Of a stretch of 64,000 bases of DNA, positions 24,883 to 53,053 are shown piece by piece (within the stretch, counting starts at the first letter, position 1; each line of letters starts with the position of its first letter). The translations under genes and the position numbers were made by a program. The stretch spans positions 896,001 through 960,000 of the forward strand of contig CBDCGL010000011.1 in the NCBI GenBank assembly GCA_965216755.1. The letters run 5' to 3'. The notes below the pieces were generated by a model that saw only the letters and a program-made list of their open reading frames with translations, was not told the DNA's origin and did no database searches. The DNA is from Alphaproteobacteria bacterium. GTDB taxonomy: Bacteria; Pseudomonadota; Alphaproteobacteria; UBA7887.

Positions 24883-25049
24883 CGTTGCTAGAATTCCAGA
24901 TTTCGCGACATTCGTCAGCCTGAACAGGACGGCAACATTTCGTGGCTGCTGTTAAAGACATCCTCAATATACTGTATGTTTCGCGTAATGCTGGACAGCA
25001 TGACGCTGCCGTTTCTAGATAACGCCGCATGCGATCGAGAGGATGAGAC

Positions 25050-25709
25050 GTGACCGACATTCAACACGATTCCGCCGAAACGATAGAGTCCACCGAAGGA
25101 CTCCGAGCGATCTATGATCAACCGACAGAGCGCGCGATCGGTAAGCAGCTCAATTCACTTGATGAGTTTTGTCGTGCCTTCATATCCCTGTCGCCGTTTG
25201 TCTGCGTGGCAACTGCTGATGCGAACGGCCAAGTCGATGTGAGCCCGCGCGGCGATGCGCCGGGATTCGTGCACGTCATCGATTCGAAAACTGTCGTCAT
25301 CCCTGATCGACGTGGCAACAATCGGCTTGACACATTTCGCAACGTCCTGGAAAACCCGTCGGCAGGCTTGATCTTCTTCATACCGGGATTCGCCGAGACG
25401 TTGCGGGTCAACGGTGCCGCCGCCGTGGTCAGAGATCCGGACCTCTGCTCGGCTGCCGCGATCAATGGCCAAACACCGAAAGCCCTCCTGAAGGTGGCGG
25501 CGCGCGAAGTGTTTTTTCACTGCGGCAAGGCATTGATCAGATCTCGGCTGTGGGATGCCGAGGCGCAAGTGCCACGGGATCGGCTTCCCGGCCTGGGCCG
25601 CATGATCGCGGAGCAAATCGCCGCCAAGACCGGCGACAATGTGGATGAAGCCGCCGCGGCGGCGGCAGACGCGTGGGTTGCGGAAGCCTATCGCACGAAG
25701 CTCTATTGA
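25050..25709 (+). CDS. Pyridoxamine 5'-phosphate oxidase-like FMN-binding protein
   Basis: DVSPRGD, IPDRRGNNRLD, ETLRVNG, FHCGKALIRSRLW. GAGGA SD before the GTG start. Confidence 0.9.
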   Translation: MTDIQHDSAETIESTEGLRAIYDQPTERAIGKQLNSLDEFCRAFISLSPFVCVATADANGQVDVSPRGDAPGFVHVIDSKTVVIPDRRGNNRLDTFRNVLENPSAGLIFFIPGFAETLRVNGAAAVVRDPDLCSAAAINGQTPKALLKVAAREVFFHCGKALIRSRLWDAEAQVPRDRLPGLGRMIAEQIAAKTGDNVDEAAAAAADAWVAEAYRTKLY

Positions 25710-26083
25710 GGCTTCCCAGCCGCGAACGCGGTTTCCCAGTTGCGGCCATCGAAGAGATCAACGTCATAGTACGCGGACTCCAAGTCGAAATCGTCGAGGC
25801 AACACACATTGATCAAGAACATTTCGGGCGCCGAACGTGGGTGGCCGAAAGGATGGATGCCGCAGTGCCGGCAGAAATAGTGCTTTGAGACTCCTGTGTT
25901 GAACTGATAGAGCCTCAGTTCGTCCCGCCCTTCCTTCAGGCGAAAACGCTGCGTCGCAACACGCGTGAAGATCCCGCCTTTTTTCGTGCATATTGAGCAG
26001 TTGCAGCGAACCAGCCTGGTCAGATCCGCATCAACTTCGAACTTCACCGCGCCGCAATGGCAGCTGCCGTGATAAGTCTGCAT
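25703..26083 (-). CDS. GFA family (CENP-V/GFA) zinc-binding protein
   Basis: MQTYHGSCHCG, CNCSIC, HYFCRHCGIHPF, INVCCL, FDGRNWE. AAGGAGG SD. Confidence 0.92.
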   Translation of the reverse strand: MQTYHGSCHCGAVKFEVDADLTRLVRCNCSICTKKGGIFTRVATQRFRLKEGRDELRLYQFNTGVSKHYFCRHCGIHPFGHPRSAPEMFLINVCCLDDFDLESAYYDVDLFDGRNWETAFAAGKPQ

Positions 26084-26116
26084 GAGTTCTTCCTCCTTCC
26101 ACCTGGACACTCCACG

Positions 26117-27238
26117 ATGACACAGTCGCCATCCGATTCTGACCGCCGCGCGTTCTATTTGGACTGGTTGCGGATCGGGGCCATGGCCGCCGTCTTCTTT
26201 TTTCACTGTGGCCGCGCGTTCGACACCCATGGCTGGCACATCAAGAACGACGTGACGACCCAAGGCTTTACGGTTTTCTCGCTGGTACTTGTTCAGTGGA
26301 TGATGCCGATTTTATTCCTCATCTCTGGTTGGGTTAGCTATTTGGTACTGCAAAAATCGGACATGGGCGCCTTCGTCAGGTCACGCGTCAAACGGCTATT
26401 GGTGCCGTTTATTGTCGGCACGTTGATATTGATTCCGCACCAAGTCTACGTTGAGCGGGTGACACAGGCCGGCGTGACCGAGAGATTCTTGACTTGGTTC
26501 CCCCAGTATTTTGACGGGTTCTACGCATTCGGCGGCAACTTCGCATGGATGGGGCTGCATCTGTGGTACCTGGAAATGCTGTTCATTTTCTCATTGCTAT
26601 TCTTGCCACTGCTTCTGTGGCTTCGCCACCCCGCCGAGGCCTGCCGATGGCCGGTATCATTCATTTGGCTTTCCTGCGCCTTGCCGCTTCTCGCGGTTGA
26701 ACTGCTGGTCGCGCTGTTCCCAGAAAGCATTGGCCGGCAGGATTTTGGTGGTTGGAGCCTGTTGACTTATATGGTTTGGTTTTGGCTCGGCTATTTGATT
26801 GGCCGAAACGTCCAGTTCCAACACGCCCTGATTGCCGCACGTCACGTTTCGCTCGCGATCGCCGCGACAAGCTTGGCAGCCGGATTCATGATTGTCTTAT
26901 CTGACGACATTGACTTTGGATATGTCGGCAACCTGAGTGTGCGCATCGGAGTCGCGTGGGGCGGAATCGCTGCGTTCCTCGGCTATGCGGCGCATCATCT
27001 CAATTTCGACGCGGTGCCAAGACGCGCGCTTAACGAAGCCATTCTGCCATTTTATATTTTGCACCAATCGGTGATCGTCCTGATCGCATTCTATGTCGTG
27101 CCACTGCCGCTGTCGCCATCAGTTAAATTTGGTTTGATCGCGGGACTATCTCTAGCGATGATATTAGTTGCCTATGTTTTTATTGTGCGGCGGTTCGGGC
27201 CACTTCGCTTTGTCTTTGGCATGCCGTATCGGCAATAG
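26117..27238 (+). CDS. Acyltransferase-3 family membrane protein (OpgC/MdoC-like)
   Basis: YLDWLR, WMMPILFLISG, KRLLVPF, HLWYL, ILPFYILHQ. Confidence 0.9.
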   Translation: MTQSPSDSDRRAFYLDWLRIGAMAAVFFFHCGRAFDTHGWHIKNDVTTQGFTVFSLVLVQWMMPILFLISGWVSYLVLQKSDMGAFVRSRVKRLLVPFIVGTLILIPHQVYVERVTQAGVTERFLTWFPQYFDGFYAFGGNFAWMGLHLWYLEMLFIFSLLFLPLLLWLRHPAEACRWPVSFIWLSCALPLLAVELLVALFPESIGRQDFGGWSLLTYMVWFWLGYLIGRNVQFQHALIAARHVSLAIAATSLAAGFMIVLSDDIDFGYVGNLSVRIGVAWGGIAAFLGYAAHHLNFDAVPRRALNEAILPFYILHQSVIVLIAFYVVPLPLSPSVKFGLIAGLSLAMILVAYVFIVRRFGPLRFVFGMPYRQ

Positions 27239-27278
27239 CCCGTCTTCACGCCCGCGCCTGCCCAAGGCTACTGTTTGG

Positions 27279-27294
27279 TGTGAGTCGGTTCACA
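27279..27294. promoter_or_regulatory. CRP/FNR-family binding site (perfect CRP consensus)
   Basis: TGTGA-GTCGGT-TCACA. Confidence 0.5.
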
Positions 27295-27417
27295 GTTTCA
27301 ATCACAAAATCGCGATAGCGCCCTATCTCTCTTCATGTAAATTCGAGAAACGCCCAAATTTCGGCGGATTTTCGCGCAATCTATTCGACCTTATCGACAA
27401 GCAGCTTCTTTTCGTCG

Positions 27418-27433
27418 CGTGAAGCAGTTCACA
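27418..27433. promoter_or_regulatory. Second CRP-type site
   Basis: CGTGA-AGCAGT-TCACA, about 100 bp upstream of the ATG at 27535. Confidence 0.45.
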
Positions 27434-27534
27434 GCGCGTCGCGGCGCCACGCTCTACTTTTCCCCCAGATCGAGGCCAAGACCAAATCACCCAAGCGCCA
27501 CACACGGACGCCCAAGCAAACCGGAGACACCGTC

Positions 27535-27786
27535 ATGATCAAGACCATCGCCATCGTTGCCGTTACGACCGCTCTATCGACCACCGCTGCGTTCGCGCAG
27601 GGCGGCGGCTATCAATGGAACCAGTCCGGTCCGACGAGCACCGACGCCGCCATGACCCAACCGGCCGAGAAGATCACAGCGACTCATCCCAACGCTTACG
27701 TGAAAACACCAACAGCGGCCGATGTCCACGTGACGGTGCAACCGGCAAAGATCTTCGCCCAAAGCCTAAATAGCTATGCTGGCTAA
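27535..27786 (+). CDS. Small secreted hypothetical protein with an internal tandem repeat
   Basis: GGAG SD. Sec signal MIKTIAIVAVTTALSTTAAFA-Q. Followed by a terminator. Confidence 0.8.
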   Translation: MIKTIAIVAVTTALSTTAAFAQGGGYQWNQSGPTSTDAAMTQPAEKITATHPNAYVKTPTAADVHVTVQPAKIFAQSLNSYAG

Positions 27787-27857
27787 CGACCCCTGAATTC
27801 TCCCTCTCCTCCCCGACTGATGACTCGGCCATCCTGCCCCCTTACAGGATGGCCGCT
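27769..27857 (+). repeat. 89-bp direct repeat, copy 1
   Basis: aatagctatgctggctaacgacccctgaattctccctctcctccccgactgatgactcggccatcctgcccccttacaggatggccgct. 86/89 identical to 29663-29751. Confidence 0.97.
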
Positions 27858-27863
27858 TTCTTT
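27826..27863 (+). terminator. Rho-independent terminator between convergent genes
   Basis: CGGCCATCCTG-CCCCCTTA-CAGGATGGCCG then CTTTCTTT. Confidence 0.8.
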
Positions 27864-27876
27864 GTATGCCCATTTG

Positions 27877-29004
27877 TCACTTGTGCGACGAAGGCTGACT
27901 TCCCGAGACCTTCCACGCTATCTGATAGGGCTCGAAAATTTCTAGATGTTCCTCTAACGTTATCAATCCGACGCATGGCATGGCGCCAACTTCCGGCATA
28001 TCACCCCTTGCAAGCTTCTTTGCTAAGATAATTGCCGGTGCACATGGAATGTAAAGCCCATCGCCACCACGTGCGACTAAGCTGAATTTCACCTGTTTTC
28101 TTCGGCCACGTCGTCCCTCACCCTTCAGCGTCATAGAGAACCCACTGCTCTCGCTCCCAAAGAAATCGAACATCTTTGAAAGCTGGAGTAAATGACCTGC
28201 ATACCGCTCCAAGTTTCCCATCAAACCGATTCTGACGAGCCATGAGAGGAGCCACAAGCCTAGGTGCAAGACAGGAACTTCGAGACTAGCTTGGAACCGA
28301 ACAGTCCTCAGCTCTGGATATTTCATCGGAAAGAGAGCTAGATCGGGAACGTCACAGTTACCCATAAAGCGCCATCCCAATCCGTCAAACCTCCGCCGCC
28401 GGAGATTCTGCCAGCCATAAACATCGATCATTTCGCCTTCAAACAACGTCGGAAATGCTCTACCCACGTAACTCAAAATCGCCGATGTCGTGGCGAAACC
28501 ACGGTTTGTAACTTGCGCCGTTGCGATACCGTAGTCGACCTCATGCAATGTGCGAAACGAGTTGCGATAAGTTTCGATGATGCTACTCGTCAGGCAAGGG
28601 ACAGAGCTTGCACCGCTACATATCAACAACTGACGTCGCTTGGCTGCGGCATCGAGCGCACCAATTCCCACGACGAACGCTCGCGCATCCGCCAGGTCGA
28701 TATAATGACAACCCTGTTCAATGCAGGCTTGGGCAACAAAGTGGTCCTGCTGCTGAAAAGGCCCGGATGTATGGATAACGACGAATGGGTCGACGTCTGC
28801 CAGCACTTCTTTCAGATTCTTGGACATATCCATTGCCACGGCGGACGCGGGATGATGTGCTTGTAGCCTCGTCGCCATTGCCTGGGCCTTCTCTAGTGAT
28901 CGCCCGGCAATCGTCAGTACTATCTGCTGGTCAGATGCGAGGTGGCAGGCAATTCGACATCCAAAATGCCCATAGCCGCCAATAATCAGAACCCTCCGTG
29001 TCAC
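27877..29004 (-). CDS. Saccharopine dehydrogenase-like NAD(P)-binding oxidoreductase
   Basis: GTG start overlapping the upstream stop (GTGA). VLIIGGYGHFG, HTSGPFQ, HYIDLAD, SGASSVP, DVPDL, GGDGLYIP. Confidence 0.88.
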   Translation of the reverse strand: MTRRVLIIGGYGHFGCRIACHLASDQQIVLTIAGRSLEKAQAMATRLQAHHPASAVAMDMSKNLKEVLADVDPFVVIHTSGPFQQQDHFVAQACIEQGCHYIDLADARAFVVGIGALDAAAKRRQLLICSGASSVPCLTSSIIETYRNSFRTLHEVDYGIATAQVTNRGFATTSAILSYVGRAFPTLFEGEMIDVYGWQNLRRRRFDGLGWRFMGNCDVPDLALFPMKYPELRTVRFQASLEVPVLHLGLWLLSWLVRIGLMGNLERYAGHLLQLSKMFDFFGSESSGFSMTLKGEGRRGRRKQVKFSLVARGGDGLYIPCAPAIILAKKLARGDMPEVGAMPCVGLITLEEHLEIFEPYQIAWKVSGSQPSSHK

Positions 29005-29468
29005 GTGGGCCGAATTACCATTAAAAAAAACACGACAAGCAGCGCAATGAATGCAGGCCAACCGAGCGCAAACCAAACGCGAAACAGGCGACCATAAAGC
29101 GTGGGCAATGGTTTATTAAATGCCACACTATCCGCCAACAAGTTTCTCATGCGTATCTGCAGCCAAACGACTGGTAGCCAACAAGCGCCAGCCACAATGA
29201 ACAGACTGTATGATGCCGCAAGCCATGCGTCGAACCAACCGTAACCACCACGCCACACCAACCATACACCGGTGGCAGGCTGAATGATTGCCGCTGGCGC
29301 TGTGAAAAGGTAGTCGGCCAATACAGTCGTTCGGATGGCATAGTACTTTTCTCTCACACTGTCTGTGGCGCCGGAGCGCCACATAAAGAAGGCCGTAGAG
29401 AGTCCGGCACCAAAAAGAATCGTTGCACTAATGATATGAACTGTCTTTATCACGAAATAAATGTCCAT
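29001..29468 (-). CDS. DUF2269 family membrane protein
   Basis: KTVHIISATILFGAG, ADYLFTAPA, QPATG, CWLPVVWLQIRMR, WFALGWPAF, LMVIRP. Confidence 0.88.
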   Translation of the reverse strand: MDIYFVIKTVHIISATILFGAGLSTAFFMWRSGATDSVREKYYAIRTTVLADYLFTAPAAIIQPATGVWLVWRGGYGWFDAWLAASYSLFIVAGACWLPVVWLQIRMRNLLADSVAFNKPLPTLYGRLFRVWFALGWPAFIALLVVFFLMVIRPT

Positions 29469-29662
29469 GGCGGATGAGATCACAAATTACTGTGCCATGT
29501 CCAGATTCCGCACAAATTCGTTGATAGACTGACTATTGCACAATCGACGTTACTCGGACCGGCTCGCATTTCCGGACTAGATCTGGTGGATCCGGTGGAG
29601 AACAGCCCGCACTTGCAAAGTGACATGCTGGAATTCCTTTCTCACGCCATCGAAGGCGCCCG

Positions 29663-29751
29663 AATAGCTATGCCGGTTAACGACCCCTGAATTCTCCCTC
29701 TCCTCCCCGACTGATGACTCGGCCATCCTGCCCCCTTAAAGGATGGCCGCT
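29663..29751 (+). repeat. 89-bp direct repeat, copy 2
   Basis: aatagctatgccggttaacgacccctgaattctccctctcctccccgactgatgactcggccatcctgcccccttaaaggatggccgct. Confidence 0.97.
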
Positions 29752-29831
29752 ATATTTGGCGGCATGTGCTGGTAAACTATTCGCGCACTGCGGCAATGCA
29801 GCACGGCCGACGAGGATAAAGTTCCGCCATT

Positions 29832-30725
29832 TCATGTCATGCCCACGGGTGGTTTGCTTCGGCGGATACCAAACAGAGAATGCACGACGAGCGCAGAAAG
29901 CACGACGCCCCCGCCCAGCAGCGTCCGCGCACCCGGTGTCTCGCCAATGCCGATCCAAACCCACAATGGATTGAACACGGTTTCCAGCAGGGTTAGCAAG
30001 CCGACCTCGGCGGCGGTCAGATGAGGCGTGCCGCGCAAGAAAAAGAAAAAGCCAAGGCCCAGCTGAAAGATCCCCATCAGCGCCAGCAGGATCATGTCGG
30101 TCCATGGAACGGCTGTAATCTGCGCCAATGGTGCGCTGAAGGCCATCGCGAACAATCCAGCCAACATCACCGCAGGCACCATGTCGACATTCCGGTTCCG
30201 CCGTACAACGACGATATTGGCGCCAAAACATAGGGCGACACACAACGCAAAGACATTACCGAGGAAACTCGACGACTGCCAGGTTCCGCCATCGAGGCCG
30301 GCTCCTGTAAACATCAGTGCAATGCCCACCATCGCCGCCGCGATCGCCCACGCCGTGTGTGGTCGCACCTGTTCCCCAAGCAGAACGCGCCCGAGTATGG
30401 CTGATACCAATGGCGCCGCACTGAGGATCACCAAGACCGTCGCCACCAAAGTCCGGGTCATCGCGAGAATGAAGAAAACAAACGCGCCCGAAACGAGCAA
30501 CCCGGACAACACCCCACTCCAGCCCGCGGCATGAAACAACTGTGGCGCGGCCGCGCCATGACGCGCGGCCAGGTATATGGCGAACGCAATCACAAGGAAG
30601 AATGACCGATAGAAAATAACAGTCCAATCGTCGACCGAAACGGACCGCACGAGAATGCCGCCGGTGCTCCAGCACAACGTCGCCGCGGCTATAAACAACG
30701 CTCCGCGCAGCCGCGGCGACAGCAC
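29832..30725 (-). CDS. DMT/EamA family transporter
   Basis: CWSTGG, IFYRS, LGRVLLGE, LLETVFNPLWVWIGIGETP. Starts 5 bp after the lolD stop. Confidence 0.87.
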   Translation of the reverse strand: MLSPRLRGALFIAAATLCWSTGGILVRSVSVDDWTVIFYRSFFLVIAFAIYLAARHGAAAPQLFHAAGWSGVLSGLLVSGAFVFFILAMTRTLVATVLVILSAAPLVSAILGRVLLGEQVRPHTAWAIAAAMVGIALMFTGAGLDGGTWQSSSFLGNVFALCVALCFGANIVVVRRNRNVDMVPAVMLAGLFAMAFSAPLAQITAVPWTDMILLALMGIFQLGLGFFFFLRGTPHLTAAEVGLLTLLETVFNPLWVWIGIGETPGARTLLGGGVVLSALVVHSLFGIRRSKPPVGMT

Positions 30726-30730
30726 GAGGT

Positions 30731-51518: not shown

Positions 51519-52132
51519 CACCCGGTCTCCGCCTCATCCGACTTTTCGTCGCCTGGCAATGCATAATCCGGCCCTTCCCACGGGCTCAGAAAATCGAAAC
51601 TGCGGAACTCCTGGGTGAGCTTGACGGGCTCGTATACAACGCGTTTTTGCGATTCGTCATAGCGGACTTCAACGTACCCTGTCAGCGGGAAATCCTTGCG
51701 CATCGGGTGACCGTCAAAGCCATAGTCAGTCAGAATTCGGCGCAAATCGGGGTGATCCGAAAAATAGACCCCGTACATATCCCAGACCTCGCGCTCATAC
51801 CATGCGGCAGCGCTAAACTGATCGCTGATCGACGGCACCGGCGTTTCACTGTCAGCAGCGACCTTCACACGGATACGTTGATTGTGATGATGGCTCAACA
51901 AGTGATAAACGATCTCGAAGCGGCGCTCGCGATCCGGATAGTCAACGCCGCAAATATCGACCAACTGTCTGAATCGGCAATCTGAATTGTCGCGCAGAAA
52001 CGTCACCACTGATTGGATCGCAGACGCCGAGCAAGCAATCGACAACTCGCCGTGGGCCACGGCGTATTCAGTGACATCGCTGGGCAAGGCCGAGGTGATA
52101 TGCGCTGCGAGATCGTGTAGGGCTTGGTCCAT
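51518..52132 (-). CDS. nuoC: NADH-quinone oxidoreductase subunit C
   Basis: [36 protein letters not shown]. Confidence 0.97.
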
Positions 52133-52148
52133 GATGCTGGCGCGGCGT

Positions 52149-52697
52149 CTATCGGGCTATCGTGCCAGTACGGCGTATTTTCTTCTGCAACTGAAGAATG
52201 CCGTAGAGCAGCGCTTCGGCCGTTGGCGGACATCCCGGTATGTAAATATCGACCGGCACGACCCGATCACATCCGCGCACAACAGCGTACGAATAGTGAT
52301 AGTAGCCGCCGCCATTGGCGCAGCTCCCCATCGATATGACATAGCGTGGCTCGGCCATCTGGTCATAGACCTTGCGCAGCGCCGGCGCCATTTTGTTGGT
52401 CAGGGTTCCCGCAACAATCATTACGTCCGACTGGCGCGGGCTTGGCCGGAACACGACCCCAAATCTGTCCAGGTCATAGCGGCTTGCCCCGGAATGCATC
52501 ATCTCGACCGCACAGCAAGCAAGACCAAAGCTCATCGGCCAAAGCGATCCGGTGCGCGCCCACGACGCAATTTTTTCCATGCTCGAGATAACGAAGCCTT
52601 TGTCGGTCAGTTCCTGCCCGACATAGGTCATCATTTGTTGGGTCGCGGCGTCGTTCGCCCGCTCGGCGCGGGTCATCCTGGGACCCGTCACTCCCAT
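52149..52697 (-). CDS. nuoB: NADH-quinone oxidoreductase subunit B
   Basis: [25 protein letters not shown]. Confidence 0.98.
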
Positions 52698-53053
52698 TCC
52701 AAAGCTCCCTTTTTCCACTCATAAATGAAGCCGATGGTCAGTACAGCCAGGAAAATGACCATCGACCAAAAACCGAACATGCCGATTTTTCCAAGCGACA
52801 CCGCCCATGGGAAAAGGAATGCAACTTCCAAGTCGAAAATGATGAACAGAATGGCAACTAGGTAGAACCGCACATCGAACCGCCGACGCGCATCGTCGAA
52901 CGGTTCAAAACCGCACTCATACGGAGAGATCTTCTCTAAGTCAGGTTGCTGCCGCGCGATGATATAGGAAGCGGTCACGACGACCACGGCCAGACCACCG
53001 GCTATGGCCAAAAAAATCAAGATCGGCAGGTATTCCGAAAGAAGAGCCTCCAT
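52688..53053 (-). CDS. nuoA: NADH-quinone oxidoreductase subunit A
   Basis: [30 protein letters not shown]. Confidence 0.98.

Follow-up and report, generated by a model that had tools for sequence, protein, structure and literature searches.

Neisseria minimal mobile elements are cassettes swapped between conserved flanking genes by homologous recombination, and direct repeats of a gene end are not known at their borders. Known examples of CIMEs are in Firmicutes. As described in section 2.3 of PMC5704250, CIMEs retain both attL and attR and are without integration genes. In E. coli K-12, the e14 prophage sits in icd, and the report on e14 describes icd and the icdC fragment as flanking the prophage and differing by synonymous changes (PMC13626634). 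In that account, deletions matching e14 span 15.1 kb, and excision is attributed to a site-specific recombination system (PMC13626634). The tycheposons of Prochlorococcus, as characterized in bioRxiv 10.1101/2020.12.28.424599, target tRNA genes and have a copy of the attachment motif on either side, one belonging to the host and one to the element; where tycheposons have degenerated, extra partial copies of the target are left.

The locus analyzed here is an islet of 1793 bp (27865–29657) in the window, i.e., the whole 64-kb stretch of DNA under analysis. Two copies of a 101-nt direct repeat flank the islet, the attL-like copy 1 at 27764–27864 and the attR-like copy 2 at 29658–29758, both on the plus strand. 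The copies are 93% identical, with 7 mismatches and a spacing of 1894 nt. A preliminary description had recognized an 89-bp repeat (27769–27857 and 29663–29751), and alignment bears out the 86/89 identity given for it. The three mismatches of the 89-mer are at 27780 (T/C), 27783 (C/T), and 27845 (C/A), and those at 27767, 27768, 27858, and 27860 are found in the 101-nt version. The longest run free of mismatches is 61 nt, from 27784 to 27844. Mismatches occupy 7 of 41 edge positions vs. 0 of 60 core positions (Fisher p = 0.0013), a contrast that is partly built in, as the edges of a repeat are set by fading similarity. With up to 3 mismatches allowed, the 60-nt core has two matches in the window, and 0 of 100 shuffles have any. 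A repeat search of the whole window returned the 101-nt repeat as the sole long one, every other being at most 38 nt long or at most 76% identical. The outer flanks of the two copies are unrelated, with 489 and 303 of 500 shuffles scoring equally well. The repeat has sharp limits.

The repeat includes the end of a gene. The gene, small83 (27535–27786, plus strand), is an ORF call of 83 residues with an N-terminal signal-peptide-like segment, and its ATG is preceded by GGAGA, read from the sequence at 9–13 nt upstream. No Pfam or NCBIfam family was assigned to it. Seven small relatives of small83 have in common AFAQGGGYQWN and two HPNxY-type motifs, the second of which aligns with the small83 C-terminus, IFAQSLNSYAG. 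In the repeat alignment, copy 1 holds the codons for NSYAG, the stop codon, the 3′ UTR, and the terminator; that is, the target gene's 3′ end, with its last five codons, stop, and terminator, lies within the flanking direct repeats. Copy 2 consists of PNSYAG and a stop, an identical CU tract, a hairpin without the innermost pair, and the tail CTATATTTGG. Its description as an orphan is correct: there is an in-frame TGA at 29621–29623, and no ATG, GTG, or TTG follows before the TAA at 29678–29680. In the frame of the small83 ORF, two of the mismatches are synonymous third-position changes, as had been noted: GCT/GCC (Ala) at 27780 and GGC/GGT (Gly) at 27783. The codon preceding the shared NSYAG is Leu in copy 1 and Pro in copy 2, and Pro, as part of the HPNxY motif, is found in 5 of the 7 family members.

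Downstream of the stop codon in copy 1 is a pyrimidine (CU-rich) tract, TTCTCCCTCTCCTCCCC, at 27798–27814 on the plus strand. The tract reads as anti-Shine-Dalgarno-like, and the predicted fold of copy 1 leaves it unpaired. CTCCTCCCC has 2 matches in the window vs. 0.27 expected, and both are in the repeat copies. The copy 1 hairpin (27826–27855, plus strand) is predicted to be an intrinsic terminator with 11 pairs, an 8-nt loop, and the tail CTTTCTTTGT; a terminator scan listed it first among terminator-like sites. The copy 2 hairpin (29720–29749, plus strand) has 9 pairs and a 10-nt loop in its minimum-energy fold, is weaker than that of copy 1, and was not called by the terminator scan. The comparison of 11 with 9 pairs upholds the earlier proposal that the change at 27845 removes the innermost pair of the stem. 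Neither repeat copy matched an Rfam 15 covariance model at E up to 10. The only Rfam match at gathering score in the whole window is one tRNA. A promoter scan, which covers the sigma-70 type, gave no such site before copy 2 or in 29469–29657.

The DNA between the copies is foreign in composition, exactly up to the limits set by the repeat. The islet GC content is 0.516 vs. 0.572 for the window, and a value this low is reached by 0 of 623 equally long sliding windows, in agreement with the lower GC that had been claimed. Its tetranucleotide distance, 0.411, is the largest of the 623 windows (mean 0.286, sd 0.03). Among 60 ORFs, with a mean GC3 of 0.651 (sd 0.040), the two cargo ORFs rank lowest, at 0.540 and 0.534, as computed on the longer ORFs 27877–29076 and 29001–29483, respectively. 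The genes flanking the islet have native GC3 values of 0.650 and 0.705.

Within these limits, all of the sequence is accounted for by a self-contained, translationally coupled operon, as follows. From the end of copy 1, 12 nt lead to the oxidoreductase stop; next are two genes that overlap by GTGA; and last are 189 nt upstream of the operon (29469–29657), non-coding and presumably the promoter region. No gene remnant was found in the 189-bp segment: a Pfam scan of 4 of its 12 stop-to-stop ORFs gave no family at E up to 10. The first cargo gene (29001–29468, minus strand) is predicted to encode a DUF2269 integral membrane protein of 155 aa (PF10027, E 2.8e-50), the form stored as protein P0124. 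The second (27877–29004, minus strand) encodes, from a GTG start, a saccharopine-dehydrogenase-like NAD(P)-binding oxidoreductase of 375 aa (PF03435, E 5.1e-13); the homologues of this protein are 361–394 aa long and cover 95–100% of the 375 aa. The preliminary description had the two genes coupled, and the stop codon of the DUF2269 gene does overlap the GTG start of the oxidoreductase gene, as GTGA, at 29001–29004 on the minus strand. By putative function, then, the cargo pairs a small membrane protein with a Rossmann-fold oxidoreductase.

The same pairing of genes is seen in other DNA: a Burkholderia plasmid has homologues of the two side by side, overlapping by 4 nt, and six contigs of equal size appear in both lists of the best 120 matches to the cargo proteins. 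For the cargo proteins, the closest homologues are 54–59% and 58–68% identical, with no donor among the matches listed, and the 2.1-kb region has no DNA match in plasmid or phage collections. In three plasmid loci with the homologous gene pair, no direct repeats flank the pair, which indicates that the cassette is not generally repeat-bounded. Among the three, one locus has an unrelated 168-nt tandem repeat, and one has a 41-nt match at 71%.

The islet lies in a very conserved housekeeping stretch, rpsB-tsf-...-dnaE / lolD-lolCE-proS, in which four of the gene names come from reading the translations. To the right is an EamA-family transporter gene (29832–30725, minus strand; PF00892, E 2.6e-26; GC3 0.705) of native composition, which forms the chromosomal flank and converges on small83. 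If the islet and one repeat copy are removed on paper, small83 and the EamA gene converge on a single terminator, a normal arrangement. Relatives' loci were collected using LolCE as the anchor, giving 80 loci (~1.4 Mb), none of them from the genome of the window itself, the best of which have 56–66% LolCE identity. The seven genes between dnaE and lolD were found by tblastn in 0 of these 80 loci (at most 66% LolCE identity), and neither the repeat nor the islet is present in the ~1.4 Mb. The comparison shows the lolD-dnaE junction, as judged from gene content, to be a slot of variable content in this bacterial order.

The claimed absence of an integrase holds for the islet and for the 58 window ORFs scanned with Pfam. 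Both cargo ORFs fall in other Pfam families, and no recombinase or transposase was found among 51 further window ORFs. The islet's inner ends show no significant terminal inverted repeat (39 of 500 shuffles score equally), and none are seen by eye within the repeat unit. Integrons have the core sites RYYYAAC and GTTRRRY. An integron gene cassette was considered and rejected, given that no integrase is found in the scanned ORFs and that the repeat ends do not fit attC cores by eye. A Xer/dif reading was dropped after a by-eye check against the consensus.

We suggest that the islet has the look of a scar left by an old insertion; as changes in bacterial genomes go, this is a fairly ordinary one. 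The specific proposal, to which we give about an even chance, is that a circular DNA carrying its own copy of the small83 3′ end recombined with the chromosome in one crossover and so produced an integrase-less, CIME-like islet. The two-gene operon would have been acquired horizontally and placed just behind small83 by a single reciprocal (Campbell-type) crossover. The incoming DNA would have been a circle of ~1.9 kb, or a larger element later trimmed, and would have borne a slightly diverged, ~100-nt small83 3′ end with terminator. A crossover inside the 61-nt identical core would leave small83 with an intact 3′ end and terminator, now copy 1, and would leave copy 2 as an orphan at the far side, adjoining the EamA gene; the two halves of each copy would then differ in origin. 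Edge mismatches with a clean core would be the pattern expected from a crossover between diverged partners, and later gene conversion between the copies would give the same.

The earlier proposal of an att-like insertion at a gene 3′ end is sustained in part. Foreign DNA bounded by a repeat, the identity of the repeat as a 3′ end plus terminator, and the lack of an integrase in the scanned ORFs all fit a circle that brought a replacement end. Less can be made of the argument that the synonymous-only divergence points to a selected homologous gene as the origin of the second copy. For two random changes in the five shared codons, the chance that both are synonymous is 0.04, or 0.11 if transitions only are considered, and divergence in place, with selection on copy 1, would yield the same pattern. 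The Pro codon before NSYAG in copy 2 is a hint in favor of the homologous-gene origin.

What enzyme might have carried out the crossover? We lean slightly toward a site-specific integrase that worked in trans or has been lost since then, over RecA acting on the homologous 100 nt. In the former case, the islet would be a decayed CIME-like element, against which stands the clean loss of all other element genes that is needed, as no remnant is found in the islet or the scanned ORFs. As predicted from its ORFs, the present islet encodes nothing for its own movement. A rare RecA loop-out through the 61 identical bases could remove it.

A duplication in place is unlikely. Here, illegitimate recombination would have inserted the operon behind the small83 terminator, and the ~100-nt 3′ end with its terminator would have been copied separately, for instance by a template switch or by duplicating repeat and islet in tandem and then deleting the second islet, such that the repeat is not an insertion footprint. 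No recombinase would be needed, matching the scanned ORFs, in which none is found. Mutations in copy 1, the copy under selection, would be expected to leave synonymous changes only, and the identical core with diverged edges would fit gene conversion between old duplicates. Yet such a history requires two or three independent events with end points that match the compositional limits of the islet, and the second islet copy would have vanished from the window with no trace. Moreover, the CTA/CCG difference at the left edge calls for two changes in one codon.

Copy 2 could instead be what is left of a tandem paralogue: the foreign operon would have replaced the body of a second small83-type gene, sparing its last codons and terminator. 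Given the HPNxY-type Pro of copy 2 and the two synonymous differences in the five shared codons, the idea has some appeal, but we think it quite improbable, for nothing like small83 or its relatives was found upstream of copy 2. Among the tblastn matches listed, the one at this site is a five-residue match at 29663–29677 (E 64), and the four stop-to-stop frames scanned upstream of copy 2 matched no family. Outside small83 itself, the matches listed include none better than E 0.1 and no second family member in the window. In addition, 61 identical non-coding bases beside diverged codons demand strong constraint or gene conversion.

It is very unlikely, in turn, that the repeat is an independent unit, i.e., a dispersed intergenic repeat or a multi-copy RNA module (an anti-Shine-Dalgarno-like CU tract plus terminator, cf. 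3′ UTR-derived small RNAs) that brackets the operon by chance or selection. The perfectly conserved core, which consists of the CU tract and the 5′ half of the hairpin, is what such a unit might preserve; the tract is predicted to be single-stranded just before a strong terminator, and CTCCTCCCC is confined to the two copies in the window. But the 64-kb window contains only two copies, and the 80 relatives' loci (~1.4 Mb) contain none; a dispersed repeat or MITE would be expected to have many copies in its genome, with terminal inverted repeats and short target duplications. The left limit of the repeat falls inside a coding region, and the unit shows no terminal inverted repeats by eye, no Rfam match at E up to 10, and no promoter-like site before copy 2.

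A more specific idea, which we regard as a long shot, is that the invariant 61-nt core has a function of its own rather than being a scar left passively behind. Its predicted parts are the single-stranded CUCCCUCUCCUCCCC tract and a hairpin with modeled 10–11-nt arms around an 8-nt loop. In a first form, the core could be a 3′ UTR-derived regulatory RNA module that moves with, or is copied beside, incoming genes. In a second form, it could be the site for a recombinase encoded elsewhere that inserts integrase-less cassettes behind small-gene terminators; if so, this would be a cassette system without integron features. Finally, an assembly artefact or contaminant insertion, which would explain the contrast in composition between the islet and the DNA around it, can be discounted almost entirely, as the source contig is 4,853,305 bases long per the stored protein records and the junction repeats differ at 7 positions, which a collapsed or chimeric assembly would not yield.

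If insertion by a single crossover is the true history, the islet is a clean, minimal case of foreign genes in a conserved housekeeping stretch, anchored by the tail of a small gene and its terminator, with no mobility gene left. It is also a test case for whether ~60 identical bases suffice for gain and loss of an islet. Alone, it raises no new question, and it would gain in value only if the repeat turned out to be an RNA module or a site for a recombinase.

The proposed insertion can be compared with the systems introduced above. Like Neisseria minimal mobile elements, the islet is integrase-free cargo with conserved genes on both sides of a variable slot, and in the relatives the lolD-dnaE junction is such a slot; unlike them, as far as they are known, it is bounded by direct repeats of a gene end. 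It shares with the tycheposons, as they are characterized in the source cited, the flanking by one host-type and one element-type copy. The islet's target, however, is a small protein gene plus terminator rather than a tRNA, and it has neither an array of partial copies nor integrase fragments. The resemblance to e14, as the prophage is described in its report, is closer: both suggest integration in the 3′ end of a protein-coding gene, a replacement end brought in, a displaced orphan copy at the far end, and mostly synonymous differences. The islet differs from e14 in its 1.8-kb size, in that no recombinase was found, and in that the duplicated coding part is five or six codons, the rest being mostly 3′ UTR and terminator. 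With respect to CIMEs, the repeats are present and integration and transfer genes are not found in the scanned ORFs, with the repeats being putative att sites. CIMEs, in the account cited, are recognized via a related ICE or IME at the same att site, whereas the CIME-like reading of the islet comes from its repeats and gene content; it is also very small (1.8 kb) and carries no gene remnants. Like the CIMEs of that account, it is a short, cargo-only segment, with no integrase inside, held between direct repeats that take in the target gene's end.

The two copies of the direct repeat, copy 1 at 27764–27864 and copy 2 at 29658–29758, are 101 nt long, 93% identical, and spaced 1894 nt apart. For the narrower limits 27769–27857 and 29663–29751, the reported identity of 86/89 is correct, with mismatches only at 27780, 27783, and 27845; the looser edges add four more, at 27767, 27768, 27858, and 27860. 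The longest identical run, 27784–27844, extends for 61 nt. A 60-nt core of the repeat has exactly two matches in the 64 kb when up to 3 mismatches are allowed, and none in shuffled sequences. A whole-window repeat search found, besides this repeat, none longer than 38 nt or above 76% identity. Beyond the repeat, the sequences on either side of the two copies bear no relation to each other, as scores as good as theirs were obtained in 489 of 500 shuffles upstream and in 303 of 500 downstream.

Copy 1 starts inside an 83-codon ORF, small83 (27535–27786, plus strand), and its parts, all read on the plus strand, are as follows. The NSYAG codons and TAA stop that end the small83 ORF come first. Then come a pyrimidine run, TTCTCCCTCTCCTCCCC (27798–27814), unpaired when copy 1 is folded in silico; a hairpin whose 11 pairs close an 8-nt loop (27826–27855); and, after the hairpin, the tail CTTTCTTTGT. 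In a scan of the surrounding 20 kb, this hairpin heads the list of terminator-like sites. Copy 2 is built alike but differs in three respects. A C-to-A substitution costs the hairpin its innermost pair, leaving 9 pairs in the minimum-energy fold; the plus-strand tail after the hairpin is CTATATTTGG; and no reading frame leads into the copy, since a TGA at 29621 closes the frame and no start codon reopens it, as the preliminary description had it. In both copies the CU-rich tract (27798–27814 and 29692–29708) holds CCUCC-type, anti-Shine-Dalgarno-like words directly 5′ of the terminator, an arrangement shared by many base-pairing small RNAs. Neither tract matched an Rfam family.

To judge from its sequence, small83 is a real gene encoding a secreted protein, with GGAGA 9–13 nt 5′ of the ATG and an N-terminus that reads as signal-peptide-like. 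Neither Pfam nor NCBIfam has a family that matches it. Besides small83 itself, a word-based search of 5.8 billion proteins returned two relatives, one with 57% identity across 59% of the query and the other with 43% across 92%. HMMER, run in full against 1.84 billion representatives, returned eight proteins at E ≤ 0.001: small83, six small ones of 92–111 aa, and one of 2699 aa, P0244. Seventeen separate stretches of P0244 match small83 residues 21–61; thus, the AQGGGYQWN-type module is also present as a long tandem-repeat protein. Eight sequences were aligned, namely small83, the six small HMMER proteins, and the second word-search relative, and they have in common AFAQGGGYQWN and two HPNxY-type motifs. 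The second motif, IFAGHPNSY or similar in the relatives, aligns with the small83 C-terminus, IFAQSLNSYAG, so the duplicated codons belong to a region that the family conserves.

The 1793 bp between the copies (27865–29657), here called the islet, are foreign by composition. Their GC content is 0.516, lower than in the window as a whole (0.572) and in the DNA on the left (0.566) and right (0.580), and none of 623 same-length sliding windows is as low; the lower GC claimed for this segment is thus borne out. The tetranucleotide distance from the window average is 0.411 (mean 0.286, sd 0.03), again reached by 0 of 623 windows. The two cargo genes rank lowest in GC3 among the 60 ORFs of 100 aa or more, at 0.540 and 0.534 (mean 0.651, sd 0.040), and the genes on either side have ordinary values of 0.650 and 0.705. 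The compositional limits of the islet match those of the repeat.

The islet is fully accounted for by 12 nt from copy 1 to a stop codon, two minus-strand genes, and 189 nt upstream of them. The first gene encodes a DUF2269 membrane protein (PF10027, E 2.8e-50). The second, at 27877–29004, encodes an oxidoreductase with a saccharopine-dehydrogenase NADP-binding domain (PF03435, E 5.1e-13). They are coupled, as previously described, the DUF2269 stop and the oxidoreductase GTG start overlapping as GTGA. From that GTG the oxidoreductase has 375 aa, and homologues of 361–394 aa, the size of most of those listed, cover 95–100% of this length. The stored version, P0004, has 333 aa, starting at an internal Met and lacking the GxGxxG segment. 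In the 189-nt spacer region, the 4 of 12 overlapping stop-to-stop frames given to Pfam matched no family at E ≤ 10. Even the nearest homologues are remote, 54–59% identical for the oxidoreductase (best 120 of 4104) and 58–68% for DUF2269 (best 120 of 5473); the few named ones are from Alpha- and Gammaproteobacteria. In a full-text literature search, DUF2269 turned up in two papers, once in each. A comparison of the two best-120 lists by hand found contigs of six sizes (6472, 18456, 21149, 57994, 6217, and 9607) in both, which place the two genes together elsewhere. On a Burkholderia plasmid the two are neighbours that overlap by 4 nt, in reversed order relative to the islet. By tblastn, DUF2269 was found on 123 plasmids and the oxidoreductase on 17, and two further plasmid loci have different neighbours. 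The linkage is recurrent but not universal.

The islet lies within a 5848-bp dnaE–lolD interval (24883–30730) of seven genes, which also holds PNPOx-, GFA-, acyltransferase-3-, and EamA-family genes. The longest ORFs of the GFA gene (25703–26263, minus) and the acyltransferase-3 gene (26057–27238, plus) overlap head-to-head by about 200 nt; their Pfam domains begin at residues 63 and 34, respectively, so both genes probably start further inside these ORFs. The Pfam scan of the surroundings took in 51 ORFs. Nine of the 60 ORFs of at least 100 aa lay outside it, five of which were scanned separately, together with GFA and small83. The remaining four, dnaE, lolD, lolCE, and proS, were named from their translations rather than by Pfam and match the relatives' loci. 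The 51 ORFs belong mostly to housekeeping families; seven are without a family, and families of integrases, transposases, or other recombinases are not represented. In agreement with the preliminary description, no integrase was found in the islet or among the window ORFs scanned, and no gene remnants were seen in the islet. At 51647–52724 on the plus strand, two long ORFs without a Pfam match lie opposite the place where subunit B and C genes are expected on the minus strand, between genes read from their Pfam families as nuoD-like and nuoA-like; they are probably antisense artefacts of crude ORF picking.

A genome collection was scanned with LolCE as anchor and gave 80 loci at 56–66% identity, mostly from Rhodospirillales-type Alphaproteobacteria and MAGs; the window's own genome is not represented in the 80. 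Both lolD and dnaE are present in 54 of them, with gaps of 5 bp to 7288 bp, 23 being under 350 bp. Of the other 26, 11 continue more than 9 kb past lolD with no dnaE, and the rest end too early to judge. None of the window's seven interval genes matched in any of the 80 loci. In ten of the larger gaps, 35 of 40 listed ORFs were scanned; the five omitted were three of locus L070 that mirror those of L021 and two that are short and overlapping. The cargo is unrelated: SDR, DUF2189, a TonB receptor, sensor kinases, an EAL-GGDEF protein, MCP, an EamA gene, aldo-keto reductase, and OsmC. No recombinase was found among the 35. The differing gap sizes and unrelated cargo make the lolD–dnaE junction, in this order, a slot whose content varies. 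The genomes behind these loci are much too remote to be used as empty-site alleles.

The repeat, the orphan copy, the low GC, and the coupled genes are all reproduced. Most likely the feature is the scar left when a single crossover brought in a two-gene operon, and no mobility function is left in it today. Such an event leaves a foreign segment bounded on both sides by a direct repeat of a gene end, here of 100 nt. The crossover would have joined the chromosome with a circle carrying a homologous copy of the small83 gene end, through either an integrase or RecA. The present copies would be hybrids, and their seven differences those between the two partners. This would explain why the repeat has sharp limits, why small83 keeps an intact end and is followed by a good terminator, why the orphan copy lies next to the convergent EamA gene (29832–30725, minus), and why the mismatches cluster at both edges. 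The mismatches occupy 7 of 41 edge positions and 0 of 60 core positions (p 0.0013). Part of this contrast follows from the way the edges of a repeat are defined, and gene conversion at a later time would yield it as well. It had been argued that the synonymous coding changes point to a homologous gene as the source of the second copy. The changes are synonymous, but the argument is weak on its own, since two changes would both be so by chance with probability 0.04 for any two and 0.11 for two transitions, and in-place duplication followed by selection on copy 1 gives the same result. The codon before NSYAG, which is Pro in copy 2 and Leu in copy 1, hints at the homologous gene, as the Pro of HPNxY is found in 5 of 7 relatives.

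We liken the islet left by the proposed single crossover to three kinds of element, although membership in any of them cannot be claimed; an integrase was sought in the scanned ORFs of the islet and the window and was not found. CIMEs are described as att-flanked elements without integration genes (PMC5704250). Islands that target tRNA genes leave partial target copies (bioRxiv 10.1101/2020.12.28.424599). In e14, the element supplies a replacement 3′ end of icd, and the orphan copy, the icdC fragment, stands at the far side (PMC13626634). The pattern seen at small83 is like that of e14 in icd.
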